A DNA stretch of 64,000 bases from a virus (IMGVR_UViG_3300017649_000004), one strand, 5' to 3'. Shown: positions 15,738 to 47,706, counted from the first letter of the stretch. Notes: generated from the sequence alone by a model not told the origin. Program-made: numbers and translations.

Positions 15738-18086
15738 ATGAACCGTGAAATCGTAGAGCTCCGCGAAGTCATCACGAAGCTGGTGCCGCTGCTGGCTGGT
15801 CGTGGCCTCAAGGTCACGCAGCGTGGCAGCCAGGCTTACGTGAATGCTGATCCGGTCACGAAGAAGCCAGTGTCGGTCAACATTCCGAACATTTCGGACA
15901 ACGCATCGCCGGACTTCATCCGCGCGATCCAGGGCTTCATCGATCACGAAGTGGCTCATGTCCTCTACACGGACTGGAACCACTACTGCCGCGGTGCGTC
16001 TGCGGCAGATTTGAAGAAGCCGGAAGTGCAGCGCTTCATGAACACCCACAACATCGTGGAGGACACGATGATTGAGCGGCGCATGGTCGAGGACTTCCCC
16101 GGCTCAAGCCGCAATCTGTCGGACACGCGCCGCTACTTCCTTGAGCGCATCACCAAGAAGGCGCTCGAGACAGCCAAGAACGACAAGGAAGCGTTCATCT
16201 ACCTGCTCGTGCCGACCATGCGCGCGCTCGCTGGTCAGCAGGAGATGCAGGACTTCATGGATGACGGCGGCTACTGGAAGAACCCCTTCGTCAAGGGCGT
16301 GGTCGAAGGCTTGAAGCCTGACACCCTCCAGAAGCTCAAGAAGGCGCGCTCCACGATCGAGACGCTGGAGATTGCCGAAGAACTCCACGCAATTCTCTAT
16401 CCGCCGCAGCCTCCGGCACCACCCATGCCGTCGGCACCGTCCGACTGCGATGACGAGGGGCAGGACAGCGACAGCAGCTCCGGCAGCCCGAGCTCCTCGA
16501 AGAAGAGCAAGGACAAGCCCGAGAAGAAGGCTGACGAGGGTGATGGCGACGGTGAGCGCGATCACCAGGAGTCAGGCGAGGAGGGCACGTCCAAGGACAA
16601 GAAGGGCAAGAAGGACAAGTCGAAGAAGGACGACAAGTCCGACGAGGAGAAGGAGGAAGGCGCTGGCGACAAGGGCGATGACGAGGACGCCCGCGACGGC
16701 GAGGAAGACGAGGACGGCGAAGGCGGTGATGCCGGCGACGATGATGGCGAGTCTGACGCCGGTGACGAGGGCGAGGAGGAAGACGACGACAAGGGCAAAG
16801 ACAAGGGCTCTGACGGCGACGAGGAAGAAGGCGGAGACGACGAGGGCGAAGGCTCCGGCGGCGAAGGAGACGATGAGTCTGAGGACGCCGATGAAGGCGG
16901 CGATGATGAGAACGGTGAGGATGGCTCTGGAGCGCCCGGCAAGTCCGGCGACAAGGGCGGTGACTCCGACGAGGAAGGAAAGAAGAAGGCACCGGAAGTG
17001 ATCACCGAAGGTGCTGACGGTGGCGGCGTTGGTGAAATGAACGGCGACGACACCGAAAACTCTCCTGGTGGCGGCGTCAGCAACGACGAAGGTAAGAGCC
17101 TGTTCGACTTCGATGACGATGCCTTCGAAGAAGCGGACATGAGCAAGCAGATCGCGATCCTCATCTCCGACGAAGCCGTCGAAGCGATGGATCCTGCCGA
17201 ATACCTCGTCTACACGCGCGAGTTCGACCGGATCGAGCCCGTCAACGTGCCTGACAAGATGGATTCGACCTGGGTGCCGAAGATGGAAGAGGAAGTGCGT
17301 CTGACGAGCGGCCGCTTGCAGAAGGACATTGAGCGGATGCTCGCCTCGCAGTCGCACGTCATCCGCACGCCTGGTCACAAGAAGGGCAAGCTACATGCGC
17401 CTTCGCTCTATCGCGTGATGCAGGGCGATCCGCGCGTGTTCACGCAAAAGCAGGAGCATGTGTCGAAGGACACGGCAGTGACCCTTCTGTGCGACAACTC
17501 CGGCTCTATGGGCGGTGCCAAGATGAAGCTCGGCATGATTTCGTCCTACGCGCTGGCGGTCACGCTCGAACGGGTCAAGATCAGCTACGAAGTGCTCGGC
17601 TTCACCACCGGCAACTTCTCGCGCATTCCCAACTCGATCCTCGAAGCGATGCAGGACGAAGTGGCAAAGACCGGTCTGCGATACGATCGGATCGAGCCGA
17701 TCAACATGCCGATCTACAAGGACTTCGATGAGCGGCTCGATGCGCGCGTAAAGGCGAGGTTCGCTTACATGATGTTCGCGCAGCGCGGTCTGAACGGCAA
17801 CATCGACGGCGAGTCCCTCGAATATGCTGCCATGCGCCTGATGAAACGCCCTGAAAAGCGCAAGGTGATGATCGTGCTGTCTGATGGTCAGCCTGCCGGA
17901 TCCTGGCGCTCCGGGCCTCACCTCAAGACGGTGGTCGAGCGCCTCAACAAGACGGGCATCGAGACCGTCGGCATCGGCATCATGGATCGCTCCGTGGCGC
18001 GCTACTACGACAAGCATGTGGTCATCACCAAGCTCGACGACCTGCCGGGCAGCGTCATGGGCGAGTTGAAGCGCATTCTGACGTAA
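15738..18086 (+). CDS. cobT: CobT-like vWA-domain protein with a hyperacidic D/E/G-rich linker
   Basis: C-terminal vWA MIDAS motif 'LLCDNSGSMGG'. There is a ~250-aa acidic low-complexity tract in the middle. Partnered with the downstream CobS-like AAA+ gene. Confidence 0.75.
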   Translation: MNREIVELREVITKLVPLLAGRGLKVTQRGSQAYVNADPVTKKPVSVNIPNISDNASPDFIRAIQGFIDHEVAHVLYTDWNHYCRGASAADLKKPEVQRFMNTHNIVEDTMIERRMVEDFPGSSRNLSDTRRYFLERITKKALETAKNDKEAFIYLLVPTMRALAGQQEMQDFMDDGGYWKNPFVKGVVEGLKPDTLQKLKKARSTIETLEIAEELHAILYPPQPPAPPMPSAPSDCDDEGQDSDSSSGSPSSSKKSKDKPEKKADEGDGDGERDHQESGEEGTSKDKKGKKDKSKKDDKSDEEKEEGAGDKGDDEDARDGEEDEDGEGGDAGDDDGESDAGDEGEEEDDDKGKDKGSDGDEEEGGDDEGEGSGGEGDDESEDADEGGDDENGEDGSGAPGKSGDKGGDSDEEGKKKAPEVITEGADGGGVGEMNGDDTENSPGGGVSNDEGKSLFDFDDDAFEEADMSKQIAILISDEAVEAMDPAEYLVYTREFDRIEPVNVPDKMDSTWVPKMEEEVRLTSGRLQKDIERMLASQSHVIRTPGHKKGKLHAPSLYRVMQGDPRVFTQKQEHVSKDTAVTLLCDNSGSMGGAKMKLGMISSYALAVTLERVKISYEVLGFTTGNFSRIPNSILEAMQDEVAKTGLRYDRIEPINMPIYKDFDERLDARVKARFAYMMFAQRGLNGNIDGESLEYAAMRLMKRPEKRKVMIVLSDGQPAGSWRSGPHLKTVVERLNKTGIETVGIGIMDRSVARYYDKHVVITKLDDLPGSVMGELKRILT
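16440..17110 (+). repeat. GAC/GAG/GGC-rich low-complexity coding repeat (CobT acidic linker)
   Basis: Runs of gacgag/gaagac/ggcgat codons that produce long mirror ORFs on both strands. Confidence 0.6.
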
Positions 18087-18198: not shown

Positions 18199-19461
18199 AT
18201 GACGGACACTGCTCTCGTCGCCGACAACGCGTCGGCGGCCACCGCCACTGTTGCGACTCCTGATGACGGCAAGATCGTTTGCCAGCTCGATGGTGTTCGC
18301 TGCCACATCATTCAGACGCACCTGCGCGACCATCATCCGAACTACACGATCGAGGACTATATCCGCGATTATCCGGATGCTCCGCTCATGTCGCCGACGG
18401 CTCTGGCGATGAAGGAGAAGCGCGAGAAGGAGCTGGCTGCCAAGAAGGCGGCTCAGGCAGCGGCCGCACCAGCAGGTGCCCAGGCAGCGCTCGTCACTGA
18501 AAGCGTTGGCGCAGCTTCGCTCGTTGCCAAGAACGAGCTGTTCCATGAGGTCTTCGAACTCGGCAATGCGCCGGCGGCGATGAACTCGATGGGCAAGCCA
18601 ATCCCTTGCACCGTGTTCACCGGTCACGACCACCTCTCGCGCGACTATCTGGCAGAGGTCGATAAGGCCTATGTGTTCAACATCGACCTGCTCAAGAAGG
18701 TCATGGTGGGCTTGCAGCTCAACATTCCGATCTATCTGTGGGGTATGCACGGCACTGGTAAGACGACCGTGCTCGAACAGGCAGCTGCGCGCACTCGCCG
18801 GCCGTTCCTGCGCAACCAGCACACCATCAACATGCAAGAGTCCGACGTTCTCGGACAGTGGACCGTCAAGGATGGCTCCACGCAGTTCCAGCTCGGGCCG
18901 CTGCCGATGGCGATGATCCACGGCTGGGTCTACTGCGCCGACGAGTATGACTTTGCCATGCCGTCCGTGACCGCGCTCTACCAGCCGGTGCTCGAAGGCA
19001 AGCCGCTGCTGATCAAGGAAGCGCCGGCAGAGTTCCGCAAGATCGAGCCGCATCCGAACTTCCGCTTCTGCGCAACCGGCAACACGAATGGCGGCGGTGA
19101 CGAGACTGGCCTCTACCAAGGCACGCTGGTGCAGAACGCGGCGAACTACTCGCGCTTCGGCATCACCGAAGAAGTCAAATACATGGAGCCGGCGCTCGAG
19201 GAGAACGTGATTTGCGCCAAGACGCGGATCAGCAAGTCGGATGCTTCGAAGATCGTCCGGTTCGGCAACGACATTCGCAAGGCCTTCGGTGAAGGCAAGA
19301 TCAGCGCGACCGTCTCGCCGCGTGAGTTGATCTGCGCCGCTCGCCTGGGTGTCGCATTCGGCGGCAACTGGAAGATGGGCCTTGAACTTGCCTTCGGTAA
19401 CCGCCTCTCGCGCATCGATCGCAAGACCGTCGAGCAGTATCTCCAGCGGATCTTCCCGTAA
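18199..19461 (+). CDS. cobS: CobS/MoxR-like AAA+ ATPase
   Basis: Walker A 'LWGMHGTGKTTVLEQAA' and MoxR/CobS-type AAA+ organisation, sitting directly after the CobT-like gene. Confidence 0.75.
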   Translation: MTDTALVADNASAATATVATPDDGKIVCQLDGVRCHIIQTHLRDHHPNYTIEDYIRDYPDAPLMSPTALAMKEKREKELAAKKAAQAAAAPAGAQAALVTESVGAASLVAKNELFHEVFELGNAPAAMNSMGKPIPCTVFTGHDHLSRDYLAEVDKAYVFNIDLLKKVMVGLQLNIPIYLWGMHGTGKTTVLEQAAARTRRPFLRNQHTINMQESDVLGQWTVKDGSTQFQLGPLPMAMIHGWVYCADEYDFAMPSVTALYQPVLEGKPLLIKEAPAEFRKIEPHPNFRFCATGNTNGGGDETGLYQGTLVQNAANYSRFGITEEVKYMEPALEENVICAKTRISKSDASKIVRFGNDIRKAFGEGKISATVSPRELICAARLGVAFGGNWKMGLELAFGNRLSRIDRKTVEQYLQRIFP

Positions 19462-24199: not shown

Positions 24200-24751
24200 A
24201 TGACCGACACGACCGCGGATCCCGTGAAAGAACCGACCACCTTTCAGGTGCGCGAGTTCATCGACGCCAAGAAGCTGAAGGAAGACCTGGCCTTCAATGA
24301 CCAGGACTTGACGACGGCGATGATGCAGCAGTCCTCGCTGTTCTCCTACTACGGCGTGCTGGCGGCCGAGGCTGCGCGCCAGGTGGATGTGGTCAAGCTC
24401 CTGCTCGAGAACACCGAGGCGGCGATCTACCAGCTCGAACGCAACAAGGCGGCAACCGCCGGCGAGAAGCTGACGGAGGCGATGCTTGAGAAGCGGGTAG
24501 CGCGCAACTCCCGGGTCATCGGCATGAAGAAGGCGCTCAACGAGGCAAAGCGCATCGAAGCGATCGGCAAGACGGCCGTCGAAGCCTTCCGCCACCGCCG
24601 CGACATGCTGGTGCAGATGGGCCTCATTTCGCGTGAGGAGATGAAGGGCGAGCTGCGGATCCAGGAGAAGAATATCCGCGAGAGCGCCTACGAATATCAG
24701 AAGGATTCGGTCCTCGAGCGGATGGGTCGCAAGCCTTCTGAGGACGCATAA
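24200..24751 (+). CDS. hypothetical protein
   Basis: 183 aa, predicted helical or coiled-coil. Confidence 0.5.
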   Translation: MTDTTADPVKEPTTFQVREFIDAKKLKEDLAFNDQDLTTAMMQQSSLFSYYGVLAAEAARQVDVVKLLLENTEAAIYQLERNKAATAGEKLTEAMLEKRVARNSRVIGMKKALNEAKRIEAIGKTAVEAFRHRRDMLVQMGLISREEMKGELRIQEKNIRESAYEYQKDSVLERMGRKPSEDA

Positions 24752-24757
24752 AAACGT

Positions 24758-24812
24758 GCATCCCATTTTATTTGACGCTATAAGTAAGTCAGCGCTTACT
24801 TATAGCGCATTC
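24758..24812 (+). promoter_or_regulatory. full promoter/5'-hairpin element
   Basis: GCATCCCA - N10 - CGCTATAAGTAAG - tcagcg - CTTACTTATAGCG (12-bp perfect stem), 17 nt upstream of the ATG at 24829. Confidence 0.55.
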
Positions 24813-24828
24813 GAAGGAACCTCTAACC

Positions 24829-25098
24829 ATGTCTCTTCTGGAACGCATCCTCGCCCTGTTTGGAATCGAACCGTCTATCGAGCGCATCACGCGTCCGATG
24901 GAAAAGATCGCTGCCAGGCTGGAGCGCTATGCAACTCAGCAGGAGTCGAAGGCTCAGGCTGATGAAAAGAGGGCTCGGCATCTCCTCGAGCGCTCGAACA
25001 GGGAGCTGGAACAGTCGGCGGAGGCTGCGGAGCTGGCTCAGCAATACCGGACCTTTGGTCCGCGCCGCCAGATGGCAGCTGGCATCCCGGCTGAATAA
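24829..25098 (+). CDS. hypothetical protein
   Basis: 89 aa. A hairpin promoter element lies upstream at 24758-24812. Confidence 0.45.
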   Translation: MSLLERILALFGIEPSIERITRPMEKIAARLERYATQQESKAQADEKRARHLLERSNRELEQSAEAAELAQQYRTFGPRRQMAAGIPAE

Positions 25099-37980: not shown

Positions 37981-37988
37981 GTCCCGCT

Positions 37989-38048
37989 GCATCCCAAGTC
38001 GCTGCGCGCTATATCGTAAGTATATGCTTACTAGCGCGTAGCGCACAG
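37989..38048 (+). promoter_or_regulatory. full promoter/5'-hairpin element (copy 1 of a duplicated ~60-nt leader)
   Basis: GCATCCCAAGTCGCTGCGCGCTATATCGTAAGTATATGCTTACTAGCGCGTAGCGCACAGGAGGATCAATG. Confidence 0.55.
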
Positions 38049-38056
38049 GAGGATCA

Positions 38057-38239
38057 ATGATCACGTCCGCCTACGAGTATCAGCCCGAGCAGCCGGTCAC
38101 CAAGCAGCAGTTCGAGCTGATTGCGGCAGCGATCAAGGCCGACAATGACAACAAGGTCGGTGAGGACATTGGTCTGGAGCACGTCGACTGCGGCGCCGGT
38201 GCCTGCCCGATCGATTTCGCAGACAAGAAGGTGGCATGA
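38057..38239 (+). CDS. hypothetical small protein
   Basis: 60 aa, preceded by a ~60-nt leader that is duplicated upstream of the 38539 ORF. Confidence 0.4.
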   Translation: MITSAYEYQPEQPVTKQQFELIAAAIKADNDNKVGEDIGLEHVDCGAGACPIDFADKKVA

Positions 38240-38460: not shown

Positions 38461-38470
38461 CGTTCCATCT

Positions 38471-38527
38471 GCATCCCAAGTCGCTGCGCGCTATATCGTA
38501 AGTATCTACTTACTAGCGCGCAGCGCA
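38471..38527 (+). promoter_or_regulatory. full promoter/5'-hairpin element (copy 2 of the duplicated leader)
   Basis: Near-identical to 37989-38048 (GCATCCCAAGTCGCTGCGCGCTATATCGTAAGTATCTACTTACTAGCGCGCAGCGCAAAGGAGGATGAATG). Confidence 0.55.
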
Positions 38528-38538
38528 AAGGAGGATGA

Positions 38539-38742
38539 ATGCGCATCTCGTCTCAACCGACGAACAGGCATGAAAACAGCAGGCTCAAGTCGCTTGCGGG
38601 GCTCATCCAGTCCCTGAGCTACTCGGAGATGAAGCAGTTCTCGCAAAAACTGACGAGCGCCTACGAGGACAGCGAAGTCGCAATGCCCGAGGCACTTCTC
38701 GCCGTTTCTGCGGACATTCTGCACGATGCGTCTTGTGTCTGA
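38539..38742 (+). CDS. hypothetical small protein
   Basis: 67 aa. A possible 42-aa TM peptide ORF (38733-38859) follows before thyX. Confidence 0.35.
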   Translation: MRISSQPTNRHENSRLKSLAGLIQSLSYSEMKQFSQKLTSAYEDSEVAMPEALLAVSADILHDASCV

Positions 38743-40061: not shown

Positions 40062-40516
40062 CGATGGGAAACACTGTGAACGTCAAGTTCAAGAAGCTGC
40101 ATCCGCAGGCAAAGATTCCGACCTATGGCTCGGCGGATGCGGCCGGCTGCGACCTTTATGCTGCATTCGATGGTGATCCGATCGCTGTGGCTGGTGGCTC
40201 GACCGTGACCATTGACTGCGGCTTTGCGATGGAGTTGCCGGCGGGATACGAGGCTCAGGTTCGGCCGCGCTCCGGCCTTGCTGCCAAGCACCAGCTCACC
40301 GTCCTCAACACGCCGGGCACCATCGATGCTGACTACCGCGGCGAAGTGAAGGTCATCCTGCACAACGCAGGTGAGCGCACCTACTACGTCAATCCCGGCG
40401 ATCGCATCGCGCAGATGGTCATTCAGCCGGTCTGGCGTGCCGAGTTCGAGGAAGTGGAGGAGCTTTCCGACACTGTTCGTGGCACTGGCGGCTTTGGATC
40501 GACGGGGACGAACTAA
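40058..40516 (+). CDS. dut: dUTPase (trimeric dUTP diphosphatase)
   Basis: Motifs 'GSADAAGCDLYA', 'RPRSGLAAKH', 'GTIDADYRGEV', and a C-terminal 'RGTGGFGSTG'. Confidence 0.8.
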   Translation: MTMGNTVNVKFKKLHPQAKIPTYGSADAAGCDLYAAFDGDPIAVAGGSTVTIDCGFAMELPAGYEAQVRPRSGLAAKHQLTVLNTPGTIDADYRGEVKVILHNAGERTYYVNPGDRIAQMVIQPVWRAEFEEVEELSDTVRGTGGFGSTGTN

Positions 40517-41136
40517 TGCTTTTCGGCATTGTAGGCTCGTCGGGAGTGGGCAAAACCACTCTCGCCAAGGCCCTCGCTGAAAACCTCGGCATTCACTACA
40601 TCGACGGATCGATCACGAAGCTCGGCAAGGAGCTGGGCTACGATCCGGTCGCTCCGCTCGGTCTGAGCCAGCGCATTGCCCTTCAGTATGGTCTGCTCAA
40701 GGCGCACATGGACCTGATCGAGCAGGCGCCGCGTCCCGCGATCATCGACCGGACGCCGGTCGACATGGTAGGCTACATGCTTTGCGAGTTCGACATGCAC
40801 TCGAGCCTGATCCTTTCGGACAAGGAGCTTGAGCTGGCCGACCAGTATGTCGACCTGTGCAAGCAGGCGGTGAATGCCCGCTACGATACCGTGTTCCTTC
40901 TATCGCGCCTGCCCACCTATGAGGAGGCAGACACGCGCCCAAAGCTCAACCCGGCCTATCAGCGGCACAGCCATCTGGTGATGACCGGCGTCTTCCGGGA
41001 GCTCAACGACTGCGTGAATACGGTCTACGTCAACACGACGAACCTGGAAGAGCGGATCAGCGCCGTGGAGGACATCATCGTCCGCCGCCTCGATGAGATC
41101 GAGGAATTGAAAAAGTCCTCGCTCCACATTCACTAA
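40516..41136 (+). CDS. P-loop deoxynucleoside monophosphate kinase-like protein
   Basis: Walker A 'FGIVGSSGVGKTTLAKALAE' and a kinase-like length of 206 aa in the nucleotide-metabolism block. Confidence 0.55.
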   Translation: MLFGIVGSSGVGKTTLAKALAENLGIHYIDGSITKLGKELGYDPVAPLGLSQRIALQYGLLKAHMDLIEQAPRPAIIDRTPVDMVGYMLCEFDMHSSLILSDKELELADQYVDLCKQAVNARYDTVFLLSRLPTYEEADTRPKLNPAYQRHSHLVMTGVFRELNDCVNTVYVNTTNLEERISAVEDIIVRRLDEIEELKKSSLHIH

Positions 41137-41143
41137 ACCGCGC

Positions 41144-41200
41144 GCATCCCAAGCGCGCATTGCTATAACTCTAGTCGTAAGTCAGCGCTTACTAGCAGCG
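41144..41200 (+). promoter_or_regulatory. full promoter/5'-hairpin element
   Basis: GCATCCCA - N10 - TGCTATAA ... GTAAGT-cagcgc-TTACTAG. Confidence 0.5.
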
Positions 41201-41217
41201 CAGAGAAAGAGGAAAAC

Positions 41218-41703
41218 ATGACGAAAATCTCTCTCAACTCGGTCCAGGCTGAGGTCGAAAAGGAAGCGGAAGAGCGCCTGGTGCAGTTTGAGCAGGAGCG
41301 CCTGAAGCTGGAAGCGCTAAACGCGCTGGAGCTGGTGCGCCAGGTCAAGAGCGTCGTCGAGGACGCTGAGAAGGCAGCTGACCTGCTGCGCACGGCTCGC
41401 GACGATCTTGAGGATCATCTTGCCGTGCTCAAGCAGCAGCTTCGCGTCGTCAAGGACGTTCGCCGCTCCGGGAAGCGCCTCCTCGAGCGCGTTGCGGAAG
41501 TCGCTGATGCCGAAATGCCGATCGAGGAGTTTGTGGCGATGAACTCCGACCTTTCGGAATACGTCGAGGACGCCCGTAACGATCTGGATGACGCCCACGA
41601 GAATCTGATGGCGGACATTATCGCCCGCACCGGCGACCTCGATCCGGTCAATGCCAAGCAGTGCCCGTGTCCGGCTTGCATCGAGAACCGGCTCGCCGCC
41701 TAG
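41218..41703 (+). CDS. hypothetical coiled-coil protein
   Basis: 161 aa, helical and E/L/A-rich, with a C-terminal 'CPCPAC'. Confidence 0.5.
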   Translation: MTKISLNSVQAEVEKEAEERLVQFEQERLKLEALNALELVRQVKSVVEDAEKAADLLRTARDDLEDHLAVLKQQLRVVKDVRRSGKRLLERVAEVADAEMPIEEFVAMNSDLSEYVEDARNDLDDAHENLMADIIARTGDLDPVNAKQCPCPACIENRLAA

Positions 41704-41721
41704 TTCCGGTTCTCAATGCCA

Positions 41722-41751
41722 GGCGGGGCTCACGTAGCCCCGCCTTTTTTT
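41722..41751 (+). terminator. rho-independent terminator
   Basis: GGCGGGGCT-cacgt-AGCCCCGCC stem followed by TTTTTTT, 19 nt after the stop at 41703. Confidence 0.75.
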
Positions 41752-41782
41752 CATGTCGTGAGCGCGCATGTTCCTGCCGCGC

Positions 41783-41824
41783 TCCATTCTGATGCTCGCT
41801 ATAAGTAAGCACATACTTATTCAG
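41783..41824 (+). promoter_or_regulatory. full promoter/5'-hairpin element
   Basis: CTCCA - N10 - CGCTATAAGTA - agcaca - TACTTAT, upstream of the GHKL gene. Confidence 0.5.
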
Positions 41825-41850
41825 AGGCGCGACACATACAGAGGGTCAAC

Positions 41851-44274
41851 ATGCAGGTCACGCAGCTATCTGACCTCGACACGCACGTCGTTATTGGCGG
41901 CGGCGAGGCCAAGTCATTCCGTATTGCCGAGACGCCAGAGTTCTACACAGTGCTGTCGTCCACGCTCTATCGCGACAAGATGCTTGCGGTAGTGCGCGAA
42001 ATCATCTGCAACGCCTGGGACGCGCACATCGTCGCCGGCAAGACGGATCTGCCGATCGACATTACGGTCGATGAGAATGAGTTCGTCGTGCGCGACTACG
42101 GCCCCGGTATTCCGCACGAAAAGGTCGGCGACGTCTACTGCGTCTACGGCGGCACGACCAAGGTTGCTGACGAGAACCAGAACGGCGGCTTTGGCCTCGG
42201 CTCGAAGGCTCCTTTCGCCTACAATGACCACTTCACCGTTTCCAGCGCGCACGGCGGCAAACTTGGCGTCTACGCTATCTCGCGCGGCGGCATGGAGACG
42301 AACGGCACGCCCGACTATCGTCTGATGCAGATGGTCGACTGCGGCCAGACCGGCGTCACTGTCTCGATTCCCCTGCTTGAGCCGGGCGATCGCGACAAGT
42401 TCATTAGCCTCATCAACCGTGTCTGCCGCAATGGCGGCATCAAGGCTCAGATCAACGGCCGCCCGATCAAGGTCTTCGACTACACCAACGCGCGCAAGCT
42501 TGGCTTCTGCGTTGCCGGTCGCGGCTACGAGCTGAAAGAAAGCCGCGTCTACGTGCTTTACGGCACGGTGCTCTATCCGCTCACGACGACCGATCAGGAT
42601 TTGATGCGCCTTGTCCAAGCGTGCGGCGACCTTCTTCGCGATACCGGCACGCTGATCCTGTGCGCAGAGCCTAACTCGATCGGCGTTACGCCCTCCCGCG
42701 AGTCCCTCAGCTACACCGCGCGCACTACGGAGTATCTGACCAGGCGCCTCACGCGCGCCTACCGGCGCATCCTTGCCGAGCAGCGCCGTCAGATTAAGCC
42801 GGTGTGGGCGAAGTTTGTGCGCGCGAAGTTCACGCCCTTCAGCGGCGGCTCCTTGTGCGACGCCTACCACAAGCTGCTCAACTTCAATCCCAGCGTAGCG
42901 GACGAGAACGCCTTCCGCGACACGCTCGAGGACATCGGCCGCAGCTCCTCCGTCTACTGCATCAACAGCCTCCTTCAGAACAAGACCAGGGAGGCGTGTC
43001 TGGTGCTGAAGGCAGCACACCCGGATCTTCGCCGGCCGCTGCGCCGAATGGCCTACATTCGCGGCGAGCGCGGCTACCGCAATGTGTTTGGCGAGCATGT
43101 GCCGGCGATTTCGAAGCTGCGCCATGACACGCGTCTGATGATGCGCGTTGCCGCCAAGGCGGGTCTGCTGCGCCAGATGTATATGGCGCACAACGAGGGC
43201 ACGCCTGGCTTGCGCCTGACCTTCAACAAATACTGCACCGACGCGCTCGACTTCGTGCAGAAGGTCAATCCGACACTGTTCGTCGGCTTCTCGCAGCGCG
43301 ACGTTGGCGCGCAGATCAAGGCCGAAGGCCAGGAGCGCGTCAAAGGCTGGGCCTCCGCCGAAGCTGTGGTCGCAATCATTCTGCGCCGCAACCAGCACAA
43401 GAAGCTCGAGGAGATCCGCAAGCTCGCTGCGCACTACGGCATCAAGCTCCATGAGTGCAGGATCACCAAGCCGCCCAAGCGTGAGCCGAAGAAGAAGGAA
43501 CCGAAGTTCTACGACCTTGAGAAATATACGAAAACTCTCGCACTCGGGGAGCCGACACTGGAAAGCGCACCCTTCTTCGTGCGCTCGCGCCGCTCGCAAT
43601 ACGAGCATCAGCTCCTGACGCCGATCACCCGGGCGTTCGAGTTCCTGAAGCGCAAGTTTGGCACGATCGCGATTGCGACCGATGCGAAGGACGAGGCGGC
43701 ACTCAAGGCGCAAGGCGCTCGCGACATCATCGAAGTGATGATGGACGAGCTGAAGGTCGGCATCGACAAACGCGAATGGCAGTTTGTCCACGCGACCAAG
43801 GCAGGCTGGCATTTCAGGGGTTCGAATTACTACTGCCCGTCCGGAATCATGATGGGCGCGATGCTGGCAAGCATCCGCGTTGCCGCCGAGTTCGCGCCGC
43901 AGAAGATGAAGCTGACGGATTCGCTTCTGAACGCCCAGGCCGTGCTCAAGACCCTCTCGGAATACGCCAACTGGCTGAGCAACCGCGGCAGTTCCGCCAA
44001 GGTCAGGGAGAACATCGAAGTGTTGCTCAATCAGCTGACGCAGAACGCAAAGAGGAACTTCAAGGGCCAGGGCTATCACCCCGACACGTTCGACGAGGAA
44101 TGGTCGTTCCTCGCCATCTTTGGCGGCTGCCCTTCTATCCGCACTGAAGAGGACGCCCAGGTCTTCATCGAGACGGTTCGCTTCCTCAAGCGCCGGCACG
44201 AACGCCAGCAGGCGCGCGAAGCTGCAAACACCAACACCGAAACAGCAACTGACTCCGGAAAGGAAGCCGCATGA
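41851..44274 (+). CDS. GHKL-family (Bergerat-fold) ATPase domain protein of unknown function
   Basis: 807 aa. N-box 'VREIICNAWDAH', G1 'VVRDYGPGIP', G2 'GGFGLGSKAPFAY' in canonical order and spacing. The remaining ~600 aa are unassigned. Confidence 0.6.
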   Translation: MQVTQLSDLDTHVVIGGGEAKSFRIAETPEFYTVLSSTLYRDKMLAVVREIICNAWDAHIVAGKTDLPIDITVDENEFVVRDYGPGIPHEKVGDVYCVYGGTTKVADENQNGGFGLGSKAPFAYNDHFTVSSAHGGKLGVYAISRGGMETNGTPDYRLMQMVDCGQTGVTVSIPLLEPGDRDKFISLINRVCRNGGIKAQINGRPIKVFDYTNARKLGFCVAGRGYELKESRVYVLYGTVLYPLTTTDQDLMRLVQACGDLLRDTGTLILCAEPNSIGVTPSRESLSYTARTTEYLTRRLTRAYRRILAEQRRQIKPVWAKFVRAKFTPFSGGSLCDAYHKLLNFNPSVADENAFRDTLEDIGRSSSVYCINSLLQNKTREACLVLKAAHPDLRRPLRRMAYIRGERGYRNVFGEHVPAISKLRHDTRLMMRVAAKAGLLRQMYMAHNEGTPGLRLTFNKYCTDALDFVQKVNPTLFVGFSQRDVGAQIKAEGQERVKGWASAEAVVAIILRRNQHKKLEEIRKLAAHYGIKLHECRITKPPKREPKKKEPKFYDLEKYTKTLALGEPTLESAPFFVRSRRSQYEHQLLTPITRAFEFLKRKFGTIAIATDAKDEAALKAQGARDIIEVMMDELKVGIDKREWQFVHATKAGWHFRGSNYYCPSGIMMGAMLASIRVAAEFAPQKMKLTDSLLNAQAVLKTLSEYANWLSNRGSSAKVRENIEVLLNQLTQNAKRNFKGQGYHPDTFDEEWSFLAIFGGCPSIRTEEDAQVFIETVRFLKRRHERQQAREAANTNTETATDSGKEAA

Positions 44275-45587
44275 ACATCGTTCGCGTAGTCTCCGCCATC
44301 ACCGCCAGGGGCGGCGTGACGCTCTATCTTGCTGACGGCAGGACGATCAACCTGCCGGCGCGCTCCTATCGCACCGAAGCAATCATGCGCGAGATTGCCT
44401 GCCCGCTCGCCGAGCGCAAGCAGCCGGAAATCGACCTCGACCTCTACTCCATCGAGGCGCGCATCGAGAACAGGACCGGTGGTTTCGTCTCGTTCCTCAA
44501 GCGCAAGTGGAAGGACTTTGCCGCTATGTTTGGCGGCAAGGCGCCTGACGGCGCCACGCCGGAGGCAGACACGCTGGTTGCTGTCGTCAACGGCGTCGAA
44601 ATCCCGGGCATGGAGAAGATCGAGCGGCAGCTCGAACATGCGGCCTATAAGGACTGCGTTGGCCTTCAGAAGTTCCTGGGGCGCCTGTCCACGGTGATCA
44701 ACGAGCGTGGGCACACGGTGCAGGAGCTGCTCGACTTCCTGTCCAAAGGCGACCTTCCGATCGCTGATGACGGCATGATCGTCGCCTACAAGTCGCTGGT
44801 GCGCGAGGGTGACCACTATCTCGACTGTCACTCGCGCTCGGTGCGCCAGCGCGTCGGCTCGCTTGTGCGCATGGACGTCAACATGGTCGATCCGAACCGG
44901 CGCATTGAGTGTTCGCACGGTCTGCATGTCGGCCGCCGTGACTATATGGGCCAGTTCAGCGGTGACGTGATGACCCTGATCCTGATTGACCCGGCAGACG
45001 TCGTTGCCGTGCCGCTCAAGGATCCGAGCAAGATGCGTGTGCGCGCCTATCAGATCGTCGGCGAGCTGACTGAGGAAGGCCGGCAGCTGATCCGTCAGAA
45101 CAAGCCGATGACGAGCGTTGAGGCTGACGCCAAGCTTCTTGCCTCTGTGCTGCGCGGCGAGCGCGTCCCGGTCATCGAGACTGTCGACATCGGCAAGAAC
45201 GGCATGGTGATCGACATTCGGGAGGAAAAGCCTGCTGTAGTGCCGGTCGTTGAAGAAAAGGCCCATGCGCTCGATGACTCCGGCGAGAAGGCTGAGGAGC
45301 TTGTTGCGAATGTGCGCGAGACGGTCAAGGAGGTCGTCGAGCAGCAGAATGCGGCAGCGGCCGAAGTGACCACCGAGAACGTGTCCGCGGATCCCGCAAA
45401 GCCCGAGAAGGCTGCAAAGCCGAAGTCGAAGAAGCCGAAGAAGGGCAGCTACGATCACATTCCGGAGAAGTGGCGCCAGGCTTACATCGACGTGACCACC
45501 GGCAAGATGAGCCAGCGCGAGGCGGAAAAGGTTTACCGCATCTCCGCCAAGAAGCTGCGCGCGCTCATCCGCGAAAACGCCAAGTAA
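44271..45587 (+). CDS. hypothetical protein with Lys-rich C-terminus
   Basis: 438 aa. ATGA overlap with the GHKL gene. The C-terminal region is 'KPEKAAKPKSKKPKKGSYDHIPEKWRQAY...'. Confidence 0.55.
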   Translation: MNIVRVVSAITARGGVTLYLADGRTINLPARSYRTEAIMREIACPLAERKQPEIDLDLYSIEARIENRTGGFVSFLKRKWKDFAAMFGGKAPDGATPEADTLVAVVNGVEIPGMEKIERQLEHAAYKDCVGLQKFLGRLSTVINERGHTVQELLDFLSKGDLPIADDGMIVAYKSLVREGDHYLDCHSRSVRQRVGSLVRMDVNMVDPNRRIECSHGLHVGRRDYMGQFSGDVMTLILIDPADVVAVPLKDPSKMRVRAYQIVGELTEEGRQLIRQNKPMTSVEADAKLLASVLRGERVPVIETVDIGKNGMVIDIREEKPAVVPVVEEKAHALDDSGEKAEELVANVRETVKEVVEQQNAAAAEVTTENVSADPAKPEKAAKPKSKKPKKGSYDHIPEKWRQAYIDVTTGKMSQREAEKVYRISAKKLRALIRENAK

Positions 45588-45656
45588 CACCCACAACATG
45601 ACCATCACTTGCTGACTTAAAGTGTCAGCAAGTGATTACTTACAGGAGACAAAGAC

Positions 45657-45854
45657 ATGCGTTTTCTTGACAGCATCCTTGACTTCGTGTGGTCGATCGC
45701 CTGCTTCGCGCTCGCAATCTCGATCCCTTGCTCATGGGTCACGCACGTCATCCGCTGCATTCTTGACGAGTCCTGGATCCTGCTGATCCTCGGCGCCATC
45801 GTCTTCCCGATCGGCTGTGTCCACGGTTTCGGCGTCTGGCTGGGGATCTTCTGA
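45657..45854 (+). CDS. small membrane protein
   Basis: 65 aa with two hydrophobic segments. Preceded by an 11-bp-stem hairpin (45606-45634) followed by ACTTAC. Confidence 0.4.
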   Translation: MRFLDSILDFVWSIACFALAISIPCSWVTHVIRCILDESWILLILGAIVFPIGCVHGFGVWLGIF

Positions 45855-46001
45855 TGGCGAGCTCAGACTCTACTACGCTCGCCTTCCTCGCGAAGTCGTT
45901 TGGTGTGGCCGTTCTGATTTCGGCTGTGATTGCGCTGTTCGTAGCGGCCGTCCTTGTGACGGTCGCGCCATGCCCACCCTCGTCCTTCTGAGGAGAGTTC
46001 T

Positions 46002-46643
46002 ATGAGTGACCGCAAGAGCCACTTCATGTTCACGGCCAGCGGCCAGAAATACTGGCCGATGGAGCCGCGCAGCGAGGAGGTTGACATCGAGGTGATCGCG
46101 CATCACCTCGCCAACCAGTGCCGCTACAATGGCGCAACGCGTCATCCGAAGTTCCCGCGCCGGATCTTCTATTCGGTCGCTGAGCACTCGGTCTATGTCG
46201 CCCACTACATCGAGCACGATCTCGGTCAGCCGCAGTTCGCGCTTGAAGGTCTGCTGCATGATGCAGCCGAAGCCTACATTGGCGACCTCATTCGCCCGCT
46301 CAAATACGACGATGCCTTCCGTGAGCCGTTCTTGCGGGTGGAGCAGCGCAACGAGGTTCGGATCGCCACGCGTTTCGGATTGCAGTATCCGTTCCCGCAA
46401 GCCGTGCGCCTGGCGGACGAGGCTGTGACGGCCGCCGAGGTTCAGCAGATCATCGCTGAGACGCCGGGCGAGGACTTCAAGACCGGCTATCTGCACGATG
46501 CGGCGACCACCGCGCCGGTCAAGATCGCGATGCACCCTCCGTTCGAAGCCAAGAACCTCTTTATGAACACGTTCCGCCGGCTGATGCTGGAGCGCAGCAA
46601 GTTCCGCGCAGTCCCGCAGTCGCTTGCGCTATATTGTAAGTAA
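46002..46643 (+). CDS. HD-domain phosphohydrolase (YfbR-like 5'-deoxynucleotidase)
   Basis: 'IAHHLANQCRYNG', 'VAEHSVYVA', and 'LLHDAAEAYIGD' form the H...HD...D metal-binding set. Confidence 0.65.
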   Translation: MSDRKSHFMFTASGQKYWPMEPRSEEVDIEVIAHHLANQCRYNGATRHPKFPRRIFYSVAEHSVYVAHYIEHDLGQPQFALEGLLHDAAEAYIGDLIRPLKYDDAFREPFLRVEQRNEVRIATRFGLQYPFPQAVRLADEAVTAAEVQQIIAETPGEDFKTGYLHDAATTAPVKIAMHPPFEAKNLFMNTFRRLMLERSKFRAVPQSLALYCK

Positions 46644-46657
46644 GGACATACTAGCGA
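46611..46657 (+). promoter_or_regulatory. full promoter/5'-hairpin element
   Basis: GTCCCG - N10 - CGCTATATTGTAAGTAAGGACATACTAGCG. It overlaps the stop of the HD gene. Confidence 0.45.
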
Positions 46658-46664
46658 GACGCAA

Positions 46665-46904
46665 ATGACCGACGCGGACAACTGGCCGACATTCGCTGAG
46701 GAGCTCGGCAGGAAGACCTCTTCCGAGCTTGAGAAATGGACGGTCGCCTACGAGGCGGGAAAGATCACCTTACGGGAGTTCTACCTGATCGTGAGCACCC
46801 TCTACGACGCGACCAGTGGCCTGGCGCCGAGGGACATCAGCAACCTGCTCGCGGACGTCCATCAGTTCCTGCGAGTGAAGGCGAAAAGGAAGAAAGCCGC
46901 TTGA
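46665..46904 (+). CDS. hypothetical small protein
   Basis: 79-aa ORF. Confidence 0.4.
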   Translation: MTDADNWPTFAEELGRKTSSELEKWTVAYEAGKITLREFYLIVSTLYDATSGLAPRDISNLLADVHQFLRVKAKRKKAA

Positions 46905-46912
46905 GAAAGCAA

Positions 46913-47170
46913 ATGTGGTTGGTGTGCGACGAGTGCCACACCGAGGTGATGATCAGCCGCCTGACGCGAAACTGCATTGAAGCGCCCTGCCCTGCCTGTG
47001 GCGCGTCAATGCTGTCGGAGGACGATTACAAGATCGCGAAGAAGGCAATGCGCTGGAACAGCGTCGCAAACTGGCTCGGCAAGCTTGCGGGGCTCTTCCG
47101 GCAAGTCGAGACGGTTCAGATACACACGCACGTCAAGGACGGGCAGGTTTCGCGGAGGATCCTGTCGTGA
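46913..47170 (+). CDS. zinc-ribbon small protein
   Basis: 85 aa from an internal ATG: 'MWLVCDECHTEV...APCPACGAS' (CxxC...CxxC). Confidence 0.4.
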   Translation: MWLVCDECHTEVMISRLTRNCIEAPCPACGASMLSEDDYKIAKKAMRWNSVANWLGKLAGLFRQVETVQIHTHVKDGQVSRRILS

Positions 47171-47706
47171 GCAAGTTCCCGAAGGATCGCTGGATCATCG
47201 ACGCAATCAAGCGCGGCTACATCATTCCGCGTGAAGACGGTTCGATCCTTCGGGCGATCTCGGCCGATAAGAACGGCAACGTTGATCGCTCGAAGGGCTA
47301 CCGGCTCGTCACGCAGCAGATCCACAAGAAGTCCGGCCGGGTCTATTTCAATTTGAGCTGGAGGGGCTTCACCAAGTCCGTGCTGGTCAACCGGGTGATT
47401 GCTCTGCGCTTCCACCCGAACCCCCTCAACTTGCCGCAGGTGAACCACGTCGATGGCAACAAGGAGAACAACGCGGCCAGCAATCTCGAATGGTCGAGCG
47501 GCTCCGACAACGAGAAGCACGCTCACCGCACGGGGCTCAAGACCGGTCGCGGTTCTGCAAATTCGAACGCCAAGCTGACGGCAGATGACGTTCTGTGGAT
47601 CCGAAACAATCCGTCGGTCCCTGACGCCGAGTGCGCCGCGAAGTTTGGCGTGTCGCGTTCGACCATCATCAATATCCGCAAGGGCAAGACCTGGACGCAT
47701 CTTTAA
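47167..47706 (+). CDS. HNH homing endonuclease (HNH_3/AP2-type)
   Basis: 'VNHVDGNKENNAASNLEWSSGSDNEKHAHRTG' matches the HNH_3 motif. C-terminal 'AKFGVSRSTIINIRKGKTW' is HTH-like. GTG start overlapping the upstream stop. Confidence 0.7.
   Translation: MSKFPKDRWIIDAIKRGYIIPREDGSILRAISADKNGNVDRSKGYRLVTQQIHKKSGRVYFNLSWRGFTKSVLVNRVIALRFHPNPLNLPQVNHVDGNKENNAASNLEWSSGSDNEKHAHRTGLKTGRGSANSNAKLTADDVLWIRNNPSVPDAECAAKFGVSRSTIINIRKGKTWTHL

Follow-up and report, generated by a model that had tools for sequence, protein, structure and literature searches.

A divergent rIIA/rIIB gene pair, probably a counter-defence module, in a phage related to Rhizobium phages

Two adjacent plus-strand genes in the window (the whole 64,000-nt stretch of viral DNA that was analysed) encode, as judged from sequence and profile comparison, a divergent homologue of rIIA and a homologue of rIIB. 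Taken as a whole, the locus is best explained as an rIIA/rIIB module that probably acts in counter-defence against Rex-like abortive infection and would be required only conditionally, by analogy with related systems. The first product had been flagged from the sequence alone as an unknown GHKL protein. Because it belongs to an rIIA/rIIB counter-defence pair, it is to be annotated as rII and not as a new enzyme class. These observations refine published views and are not a discovery. The module is a recognisable, known one and does not represent a novel type of ATPase. Through this pair, the rII family now reaches an unsequenced clade of phages that have ~60% G+C and are related to Rhizobium phages. 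The coding features of the locus are listed below.

41840-45, + strand: ribosome-binding site of rIIA, AGAGGG
41851..44274, + strand: rIIA homologue, 807 aa, ATG start
41851..42384, + strand: conserved N-terminal strap and Bergerat ATP-binding domain (RIIA residues 1-~178)
42385..42810, + strand: transducer-like second domain (RIIA residues ~179-320)
42811..44271, + strand: clade-restricted, fast-evolving C-terminal half (RIIA residues 321-807)
44260-66, + strand: ribosome-binding site of rIIB, AAGGAAG
44271..45587, + strand: rIIB homologue, 438 aa, ATG start
44649..45074, + strand: RIIB conserved core (residues ~127-268)
45375..45464, + strand: RIIB Lys-rich disordered linker (residues 369-398, pLDDT 51-54)
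45465..45581, + strand: RIIB C-terminal three-helix HTH domain (residues 399-437)

ORFs around the locus were called by a codon-position GC criterion. The coordinates and lengths of the two genes agree exactly with those of the sequence-only reading, as does the overlap of the rIIB start with the rIIA stop (ATGA at 44271-44274), through which rIIA and rIIB are translationally coupled. Both ATG starts are supported by N-terminal conservation, M1 being nearly invariant across the RIIA and RIIB homologue alignments.

The function of the 807-aa protein had been called unknown, a description that gives way to membership in a recognisable family. RIIA matches phrog_2979 (RIIA, E=1.8e-112) and phrog_612 (T4 type, E=1.8e-70), is 30% identical to Tequatrovirus RB10 rIIA by BLASTP (E=6e-32), and aligns to T4-type rIIA in hhalign at 99.9% (E=4e-36). 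By tblastn, 2562 phage records were matched, mostly annotated rIIA, and both genes are so annotated in N4-like phages and in the Rhizobium phages closest to this one. A Foldseek search with the RIIA model, proposed earlier as a check, was run and matched many viral RIIA proteins. The suggestion that the protein might prove to be a diverged known enzyme was right in spirit, except that the family in question is that of rIIA instead of GyrB.

The N-box, G1 and G2 motifs that first pointed to a GHKL ATPase were confirmed, and all four Bergerat motifs were found: motif I (E50/N54/D57), motif II (D82-G84-G86), motif III (G112-G117) and motif IV (T167-G168). Among 119 homologues, E50, N54 and D57 are conserved at 90% or more, and D82, G84, G86, G112-G117, G168 and R283 are invariant. 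Pfam HATPase_c_3 scores above cut-off. By its architecture, RIIA is predicted to be a GHL-type ATPase in which every catalytic and nucleotide-binding motif is preserved. In residues 1-40, strong conservation goes together with low confidence in the monomer model, a discrepancy that hints at a possible ATP-dependent N-terminal dimerisation. The sequence-only reading had recognised no TOPRIM/GyrB, MutL or histidine-kinase features after ~130 aa; residues ~180-320 probably correspond to the transducer-like domain of GyrB/MutL/Hsp90/MORC-type ATPases and carry an invariant P281-S-R283-E-S-L-S motif common to T4 rIIA.

The C-terminal half of RIIA is built of alpha/beta units and a helical bundle, with a Lys-rich loop at 536-552. 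It matches no Pfam family, and an exhaustive phmmer search of 1.84 billion proteins returned only 24 representatives, all from the same clade; each occupies the corresponding place in an RIIA-like protein, with no other domain context. A structure search of this half against the PDB gave only generic helical repeats, and the RIIA sequence had no significant match among PDB chains (best, a histidine kinase, E=0.07). A usable observation is that the conserved part of rIIA makes up a full GHL module whose active site is intact. The remainder is clade-specific.

A competing account would make RIIA a diverged topo VI-B/GyrB-like, MutL-like or Hsp90-like protein, with RIIB as its catalytic or client-binding partner. 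The best structural matches of RIIA are DNA-acting GHL ATPases, and the set compared included Hsp90/TRAP1, MORC2/3, SMCHD1, the ATPase domains of type IIA/IIB topoisomerases and the MutL N-terminal domain. These matches are, however, limited to the ATPase module at 12-18% identity, and membership of RIIA in the topoisomerase, MutL, Hsp90 and histidine-kinase families was rejected. Domain searches of RIIA found no TOPRIM, winged-helix/5Y-CAP, CW or coiled-coil domain and neither of the C-terminal domains of MutL and Hsp90, nor a DHp domain with a phospho-acceptor His beside the catalytic domain, in line with the earlier statement that TOPRIM/GyrB, MutL and histidine-kinase features are absent. 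When RIIA was considered as a type II topoisomerase B subunit, no Pfam, PHROG or NCBIfam match fell outside residues 34-151. The NCBIfam topo VI-B equivalog scored 22.7 bits against a cut-off of 274, and residues 44-133 drew only far-sub-threshold topo VI-B, sacsin and Hsp90 matches from NCBIfam. RIIB has no topoisomerase match: neither a topoisomerase A subunit, the partner with a 5Y-CAP/winged-helix domain, nor any solved structure is related to it. The RIIA profiles score ~100 orders of magnitude better, and we consider this account highly improbable. Of the earlier description "MORC/Hsp90-like or topo-VI-B-like", the resemblance of the ATPase module stands and family membership does not; the likeness to GHL ATPases is better read as functional analogy.

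The 438-aa product is, on sequence evidence, an rIIB homologue. It matches phrog_2886 (RIIB, E=1.1e-103), carries PF26926 (Phage_T4_rIIB) in the precomputed annotation of an identical protein, is 34% identical to RB10 rIIB by BLASTP (E=5e-20), and aligns to T4-type rIIB in hhalign at 99.5% (E=6.2e-23). The Pfam copy searched, which is without the PF26926 model, gave no family for RIIB, and only sub-threshold ARID and HTH_psq matches for RIIB and the RIIA C-terminal half. No PDB chain was matched by the RIIB sequence, and its conserved core has no relative among solved structures. Within that core, the motifs D185-x-H187-S and C214-S215-x-G217-L-H219 are invariant or near-invariant. The "Lys tail" ascribed to this protein is in fact a disordered linker (nine Lys in residues 369-400) preceding a folded HTH domain. 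An HTH associated with the rIIB core is a feature of the family, and here it is C-terminal.

The supposed partnership of the two genes is supported by comparison. Among 80 related viral loci, 76 have rIIB directly 3' of rIIA and the other four are contig ends; ATGA or short-gap junctions recur. Fused RIIA-RIIB proteins also exist: phrog_609 matches both RIIA 12-174 and RIIB 117-271, and RB43 Q56C47 (1049 aa) joins the RIIA ATPase module to the RIIB core, keeping the gene order found here, as one polypeptide in place of two translationally coupled genes. The setting in a replication/nucleotide module was likewise confirmed, with ThyX/dUTPase/kinase genes on one side of the pair and HD-phosphohydrolase/exonuclease genes on the other, as in B1VFA and LUZ7. 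A PADLOC search gave no matches. A small membrane ORF (45657-45854) lies 3' of rIIB; it was rejected as a conserved third component, with one homologue (L006) among the 80 loci. Unrelated small membrane ORFs are found 3' of rIIB in LUZ7-like phages.

Comparison with known rII systems separates a shared core from lineage-specific parts. In T4-type phages, rIIA and rIIB are likewise same-strand neighbours with an HTH attached to rIIB. Against RB10, RIIA 14-302 aligns to 10-296 (30-32% identity, with motifs I-IV and PSRE(S/A)LS) and RIIB 127-268 to 169-309 (31-34% identity, with the DxHS and CSxGLHV motifs). The proteins are 807 and 438 aa here, compared with 725 aa (rIIA) and 312 aa (rIIB) in RB10. 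The HTH of T4-type rIIB is N-terminal (HTH_7, E=5.6e-5), whereas here it is C-terminal, after an extra ~130 aa and the Lys-rich linker. The full-profile hhalign ends at residue 302, and the C-terminal ~500 aa of RIIA have no detectable sequence homology to the T4-type protein; the C-terminal halves compared as profiles, against a thin 7-sequence T4-type profile, gave 0.6% (E=0.09). Foldseek aligned RIIA with T4-type rIIA over the full length at low TM (0.36-0.5). An rIIA made of a GHKL domain and a variable C-terminus, with a counter-defence role, has been described (PMC7824862). With this region highly variable in the literature, homology over it does not strictly define an rIIA. Since the C-terminal 60% of RIIA lacks detectable homology to T4 rIIA, its specificity may differ.

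The Schitoviridae proteins N4 gp33/gp34 and LUZ7 rIIA-like/rIIB-like are 38-45% identical over the N-terminal ~300 aa of RIIA and the RIIB core. Their genes overlap or abut within a replication/nucleotide module, as here, but the RIIA C-terminal halves differ from that of this phage, which resembles the N4-like phages in neither size nor gene content. The phages nearest to it have genomes of ~110-120 kb and infect Rhizobium and related alphaproteobacteria. B1VFA gp002 is homologous over RIIA 1-807 (33% identity, E=6e-130) and gp003 is 40% identical to RIIB; full-length homologues are also found in RHph_N1_15, RHph_Y2_11 and RHEph10. These Rhizobium phages share the synteny of rIIA, rIIB, small ORFs, HD phosphohydrolase and HNH endonuclease, with identities to their rIIA/rIIB of no more than 39-40%. 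No phage record in the tblastn search covered 80% or more of RIIA, and the only known occurrences of the exact protein are on metagenome contigs, the longest of them 82.5 kb.

By analogy with these systems, conditionally required counter-defence is the most likely role of the pair here. In T4, MM02, EdH4, SUSP1 and N4, rII knock-downs lost plating only on RexAB hosts, and lambda RexAB is counteracted by each of these five divergent rII modules (PMC11879866). Transposon data from T4 agree with a need for rII on RexAB hosts (10.1101/2025.11.20.689424). From homology, the pair would act as one unit that is dispensable on naive hosts and would keep infection going in cells with Rex-type abortive-infection systems. 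On its own, RIIB is toxic to E. coli, and it can itself set off a CARD-gasdermin defence (PMC10312443), which suggests that anti-defence is not its only contact with immunity.

How such a module might work can be sketched speculatively from its anatomy. The RIIA dimer would close on ATP binding, as in Hsp90, MORC, MutL and GyrB; the RIIB HTH would tether it to DNA; and the complex would remodel or mask a replication or DNA-protein intermediate, or a membrane effect, that is sensed by the defence. The clamp-on-DNA step is one that we purely infer. In a more specific form, rII would be a DNA clamp like MORC, MutL or topo VI-B, driven by ATP and working on phage DNA or replication intermediates; it would hide a signal from RexA-like DNA-binding sensors of abortive infection, with the invariant Asp/His/Cys-Ser/His residues of the rIIB core as a catalytic or metal site. 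We regard this form as possible, if somewhat doubtful. It is suggested by a catalytically intact two-domain GHL ATPase that always occurs with an rIIB core, which in turn is always near an HTH (N-fused, C-fused or in a neighbouring ORF), and, if true, would explain in concrete terms how a locus that has been a puzzle for 70 years works.

Alternatively, the rII pair could be mainly a DNA-bound regulator of transcription or replication. The HTH would make RIIB a transcription factor, RIIA would work on phage DNA as a MORC/MutL-like clamp driven by ATP, and Rex protection would be a side effect. The HTH is constant with the rIIB core, being C-terminal here, N-terminal in T4-type phages and a separate HTH-like ORF of ~100 aa 3' of rIIB in 28 of 73 related loci, largely N4-like. 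The DNA-acting nature of the best structural matches of RIIA and the position of the pair within the replication/nucleotide module of both this phage and LUZ7 point the same way, as do the classification of rIIB as a specific transcription factor (PMC7824862) and the description of RexA as a DNA-binding protein (PMC11077077). However, five phages can do without their rII genes when Rex is absent (PMC11879866), and rII is not known to have a DNA-binding or transcription phenotype. We judge regulation as the main role to be unlikely, although it overlaps partly with counter-defence and is compatible with it. A further usable observation is that an HTH accompanies the rIIB core at a place that shifts between lineages. 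The GHL module, the clade-specific remainder and the mobile HTH position are testable handles on rII mechanism.

Control of lysis timing by the pair, as a "lysis inhibitor", is very unlikely. Both proteins bear that name among PHROG and RefSeq products, T4 r mutants were historically defined by rapid lysis, and the small membrane ORF lies 3' of rIIB. The name is nevertheless historical: the rapid-lysis phenotype of T4 rII is host-dependent, and lysis inhibition runs via other genes. No transmembrane segment and no match to a holin or antiholin was found in RIIA or RIIB, and the small membrane ORF is kept in only one of 80 related loci.

The pair, read as a counter-defence module, is flanked by its own putative transcription signals.

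41721..41752, + strand: intrinsic-terminator-like hairpin and T-run, closing the upstream transcription unit (161-aa coiled-coil ORF)
41784..41805, + strand: phage-specific promoter-like bipartite motif CCA-N10-CGCTATAAG, 46 nt 5' of the rIIA ATG
41801..41820, + strand: 7-bp inverted repeat ATAAGTA-N6-TACTTAT, directly 3' of the -10-like element
45604..45636, + strand: perfect 13-bp hairpin without T-run, 17 nt 3' of the rIIB stop

The terminator and promoter element that the sequence-only reading had placed before the pair were both recovered. The hairpin at 41721-41745 has a 10-bp stem with 8 G-C pairs and a loop of 5, followed by TTTTTTT (dG -21 kcal/mol, z -4.0; equally good folds in 0 of 200 shuffles). 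The promoter element is of a phage-specific kind: with up to one mismatch allowed, the window has 13 sites of CCA-N10-CGCTATAAG, every one of them intergenic and on the + strand, against an expected 0.26 +/- 0.46. A sigma-70 consensus scan of 40400-46800 found no promoter, and the motif itself has no sigma-70 consensus match. The same promoter-like layout is present 5' of rIIA in Rhizobium phage B1VFA. The pair would be transcribed from its own copy of a putative promoter element common to the replication/nucleotide-metabolism region. Flank alignment and folding placed the inverted repeat at most copies of the motif, and a duplicated 78-nt cassette shows the same layout of motif and repeat; we infer that the repeat at 41801..41820 could be an operator or a 5' hairpin. 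Downstream of the pair, the hairpin at 45604..45636 folds strongly (dG -21.3 kcal/mol, z -6.6; 0 of 200 shuffles as good). It was not called by the terminator scan, and it is possibly an operon-end or RNA-stability element.

The gene pair encoding the 807-aa and 438-aa proteins is a divergent new member of the long-known and widely annotated rIIA/rIIB family. The two reading frames were recovered by ORF listing at exactly the coordinates of the sequence-only reading, with the start of rIIB overlapping the stop of rIIA (ATGA):

41851..44274, + strand: rIIA, 807 aa
44271..45587, + strand: rIIB, 438 aa

Both genes have purine-rich ribosome-binding sites (AGAGGG at 41840-45 for rIIA, AAGGAAG at 44260-66 for rIIB), and N-terminal conservation among homologues supports both start codons. 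The three GHKL motifs reported near the N-terminus of RIIA (residues 50-58, 82-88 and 112-122) are real. Pfam HATPase_c_3 matches above the gathering threshold (E=1.6e-7), and among 119 homologues D82, G84, G86 and G112-G117 are invariant while E50, N54 and D57 are kept in at least 90%, thus the motifs are no chance matches. RIIA has E50 as catalytic Glu and N54 as Mg-binding Asn, along with the DxGxG motif, the Gly-rich lid and motif IV (TGVTV, 167-171). A diverged topoisomerase, MutL or Hsp90 was rejected: similarity, at 12-18% identity, does not extend past the ATPase module, family-specific domains are lacking, and curated equivalog scores are far under their cut-offs.

The sequence-only reading was therefore right about the fold class and, as described below, about the partner, but its "unknown function" was wrong. 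RIIA matches the PHROG RIIA profile phrog_2979 (E=1.8e-112) and the T4-type family phrog_612 (E=1.8e-70), and RIIB matches phrog_2886 (RIIB, E=1.1e-103). Direct BLASTP matches to the T4-type proteins of Tequatrovirus RB10 were found for both RIIA (30% identity, residues 16-316, E=6e-32) and RIIB (34% identity, residues 150-271, E=5e-20), and profile comparison with T4-type proteins gave 99.9% (E=4e-36) and 99.5% (E=6.2e-23), respectively. Pfam PF26926 (Phage_T4_rIIB) is precomputed on an identical 438-aa protein, and tblastn with the RIIA N-terminal module found relatives in 2562 phage records, the majority annotated rIIA. The two proteins are almost certainly rIIA and rIIB. The closest full-length relatives are gp002/gp003 of Rhizobium phage B1VFA (33% identity for RIIA, 40% for RIIB) and the proteins of other Rhizobium phages of ~115-120 kb, whose genes carry the annotation "rIIA/rIIB protector from prophage-induced early lysis"; exact matches to the two proteins come solely from metagenome contigs of at most 82.5 kb.

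Among 80 viral contigs encoding a RIIA relative, an rIIB homologue lies directly downstream on the same strand in 76, and the remaining four end before any downstream gene is visible. Natural RIIA-RIIB fusions exist: the N-terminus of phrog_609 (1055 positions) matches RIIA 12-174 and its C-terminus RIIB 117-271, and Foldseek matched a 1049-aa "RIIA-RIIB" protein of phage RB43. Adjacency and fusions bear out the downstream gene as the partner.

The second domain of RIIA carries an invariant PSRE motif (281-284), also found in T4 rIIA. The C-terminal half (residues 321-807) is well folded in the predicted model and looks clade-specific, because it has no Pfam family, no convincing PDB match and no homology with T4-type C-terminal halves that hhalign could detect (probability 0.6%), and because a search of 1.84 billion proteins yielded only 24 representatives, all of them in the same place within RIIA-like proteins. 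Residues 1-40 (41851-41970) are among the most conserved of the family, yet their pLDDT in the monomer model is 49-73. This combination suggests an inter-chain contact, in which the segment would pack against another chain, as does, e.g., the N-terminal strap of GHL ATPases.

RIIB is confidently modelled (mean pLDDT 89.9) as a beta-rich N-terminal domain, a conserved core (~127-268), a long helix, a disordered Lys-rich linker (369-398) and a three-helix bundle (399-437, pLDDT ~97). The supposed Lys tail is thus a linker ahead of the bundle. Invariant or near-invariant core residues are D185, H187, C214, S215, G217, H219, K254 and R256. In T4-type rIIB the HTH is N-terminal (HTH_7, residues 7-44, E=5.6e-5). 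Of the 73 related loci with enough sequence, 28, largely N4-like, carry a separate HTH-like ORF of ~100-130 aa after rIIB (L023, L026, L031, L039, L041, L043, L045, L047, L049, L052, L056, L060, L061 and others), with weak Pfam support (HTH_38, HTH_23, E about 0.002-0.003). This ORF may correspond to the HTH fused to rIIB elsewhere, split off as a separate gene. Given these two arrangements and the C-terminal bundle here, the HTH always accompanies the rIIB core but changes its position. The separate ORF has the conserved signature ...RLNSxGLSLxTIAxxLGCHPTT...PADTRRxFME.

The window encodes a tail fibre, DnaB-like helicase, primase, ligase, large DNA polymerase, exonuclease, UvsX-like recombinase, SbcC-like protein, ribonucleotide reductase, ThyX, dUTPase and a kinase-like P-loop protein. 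The rII pair follows the last three and precedes an HD phosphohydrolase, an HNH endonuclease and a DnaQ-like exonuclease, a placement shared with B1VFA and the N4-like phage LUZ7. Further neighbours are:

41218-41703, + strand: 161-aa predicted coiled-coil protein with C-terminal CPCPAC, just upstream of the terminator
45657-45854, + strand: 65-aa strongly hydrophobic ORF directly past rIIB, with a good ribosome-binding site
47167-47706, + strand: HNH_3 homing-endonuclease-like ORF, a few genes downstream of rIIB

The 161-aa protein has no family match except weak coiled-coil ones, and the place corresponding to 47167-47706 is taken by an HNH endonuclease in B1VFA. The 65-aa ORF likely forms two or three membrane helices and has one positional homologue, at related locus L006 (58% identity, E=1e-12). 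LUZ7-like phages (L038, L040, L048, L054, L065, L066) have unrelated 74-aa membrane ORFs in the same position.

T4 rIIA and rIIB are needed only on lambda RexAB hosts and are otherwise dispensable, and rII knock-down in T4, MM02, EdH4, SUSP1 and N4, whose rII modules are divergent (<40% identity), makes each specifically RexAB-sensitive (PMC11879866). T4 transposon data agree with this dependence (10.1101/2025.11.20.689424). RIIB alone is toxic on expression and suffices to trigger CARD-gasdermin defence (PMC10312443), and RexA binds DNA (PMC11077077). By homology, the pair here is probably a conditionally required counter-defence against Rex-like abortive infection in an alphaproteobacterial host. 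A primary role as DNA-bound regulator or replication factor, with rIIB as a transcription factor (PMC7824862), fits the HTH of RIIB and the location of the pair, but is hard to reconcile with the non-essentiality of rII genes. The product name "lysis inhibitor" is historical, and no membrane or holin-like feature supports it. For counter-defence, the anatomy offers a speculative and rather unlikely clamp on DNA, in which ATP would drive closure of a RIIA dimer, the RIIB HTH would tether the complex to DNA, and the complex would act on a DNA-protein intermediate sensed by the defence. These results hold no surprise for the phage specialist; the gain is modest, namely a complete GHL module with intact active site, an apparently clade-restricted C-terminal half of RIIA, an rIIB HTH that changes position and a promoter-like element used phage-wide.

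The intergenic elements are as follows:

41721-41745, then T7: terminator hairpin upstream of rIIA, 10-bp stem with 8 G-C pairs, dG -21 kcal/mol, z -4.0
7721, 10260, 14779, 24763, 29358, 33372, 37994, 38476, 41784, 49715, 56242, 57747, 62951, all + strand: sites of the promoter-like motif
41801-41820: inverted repeat, with equivalents at, e.g., 24785, 33394, 38017, 38499, 49738 and 57769, and at 483-500 of related locus L002
45604-45636: perfect 13-bp hairpin 17 nt past the rIIB stop, dG -21.3 kcal/mol, z -6.6

The terminator proposed before the pair is real. A sigma-70 scan detected no promoter; the spacer before rIIA nonetheless holds a phage-wide bipartite promoter-like motif, CCA-N10-CGCTATAAG, at 41784-41805. 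Thirteen copies occur in the window against 0.26 expected by chance, all intergenic and upstream of the + strand genes they point at. With ORFs, motifs, terminator and bipartite motif all recovered, the anatomy of the sequence-only reading is confirmed. The consensus is (GCAyC)CCA-N10-CGCTATAWG, in which 13 nt separate the end of the upstream box from TATAAG, differing from sigma-70 -35 spacing; the -10 part resembles the alphaproteobacterial CTATAT box. The distantly related B1VFA has the same layout before its rIIA. The hairpin past rIIB lacks a T-run and thus was not called a terminator.

Directly past the -10-like box, most motif copies have an inverted repeat (GTAAGTA-N3-9-TACTTAC), also kept upstream of rIIA in B1VFA. 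Possible roles of this repeat are as operator for a phage regulator or, on transcripts, as a 5' hairpin. A cassette of 78 nt, made up of upstream box, CGCTATAT, inverted repeat, AGGAGGA and ATG, occurs twice, at 37982-38059 and 38464-38541 (482 nt apart, 91% identity), and a small ORF follows each copy (38057-38239 and 38539-38742). At 24776-24807, in the gap from ORF 24200-24751 to ORF 24829-25098, a palindromic stretch (CGCTATAAGTAAGTCAGCGCTTACTTATAGCG) contains CGCTATAAG twice, once on each strand, with the copies facing each other.

In the replication region, two adjoining genes look like a CobT/CobS-like pair:

15738-18086, + strand: 782-aa protein with matches to phrog_1576 and to a CobT-like family
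18199-19461, + strand: 420-aa protein with matches to an ATPase family and to one labelled "porphyrin biosynthesis"
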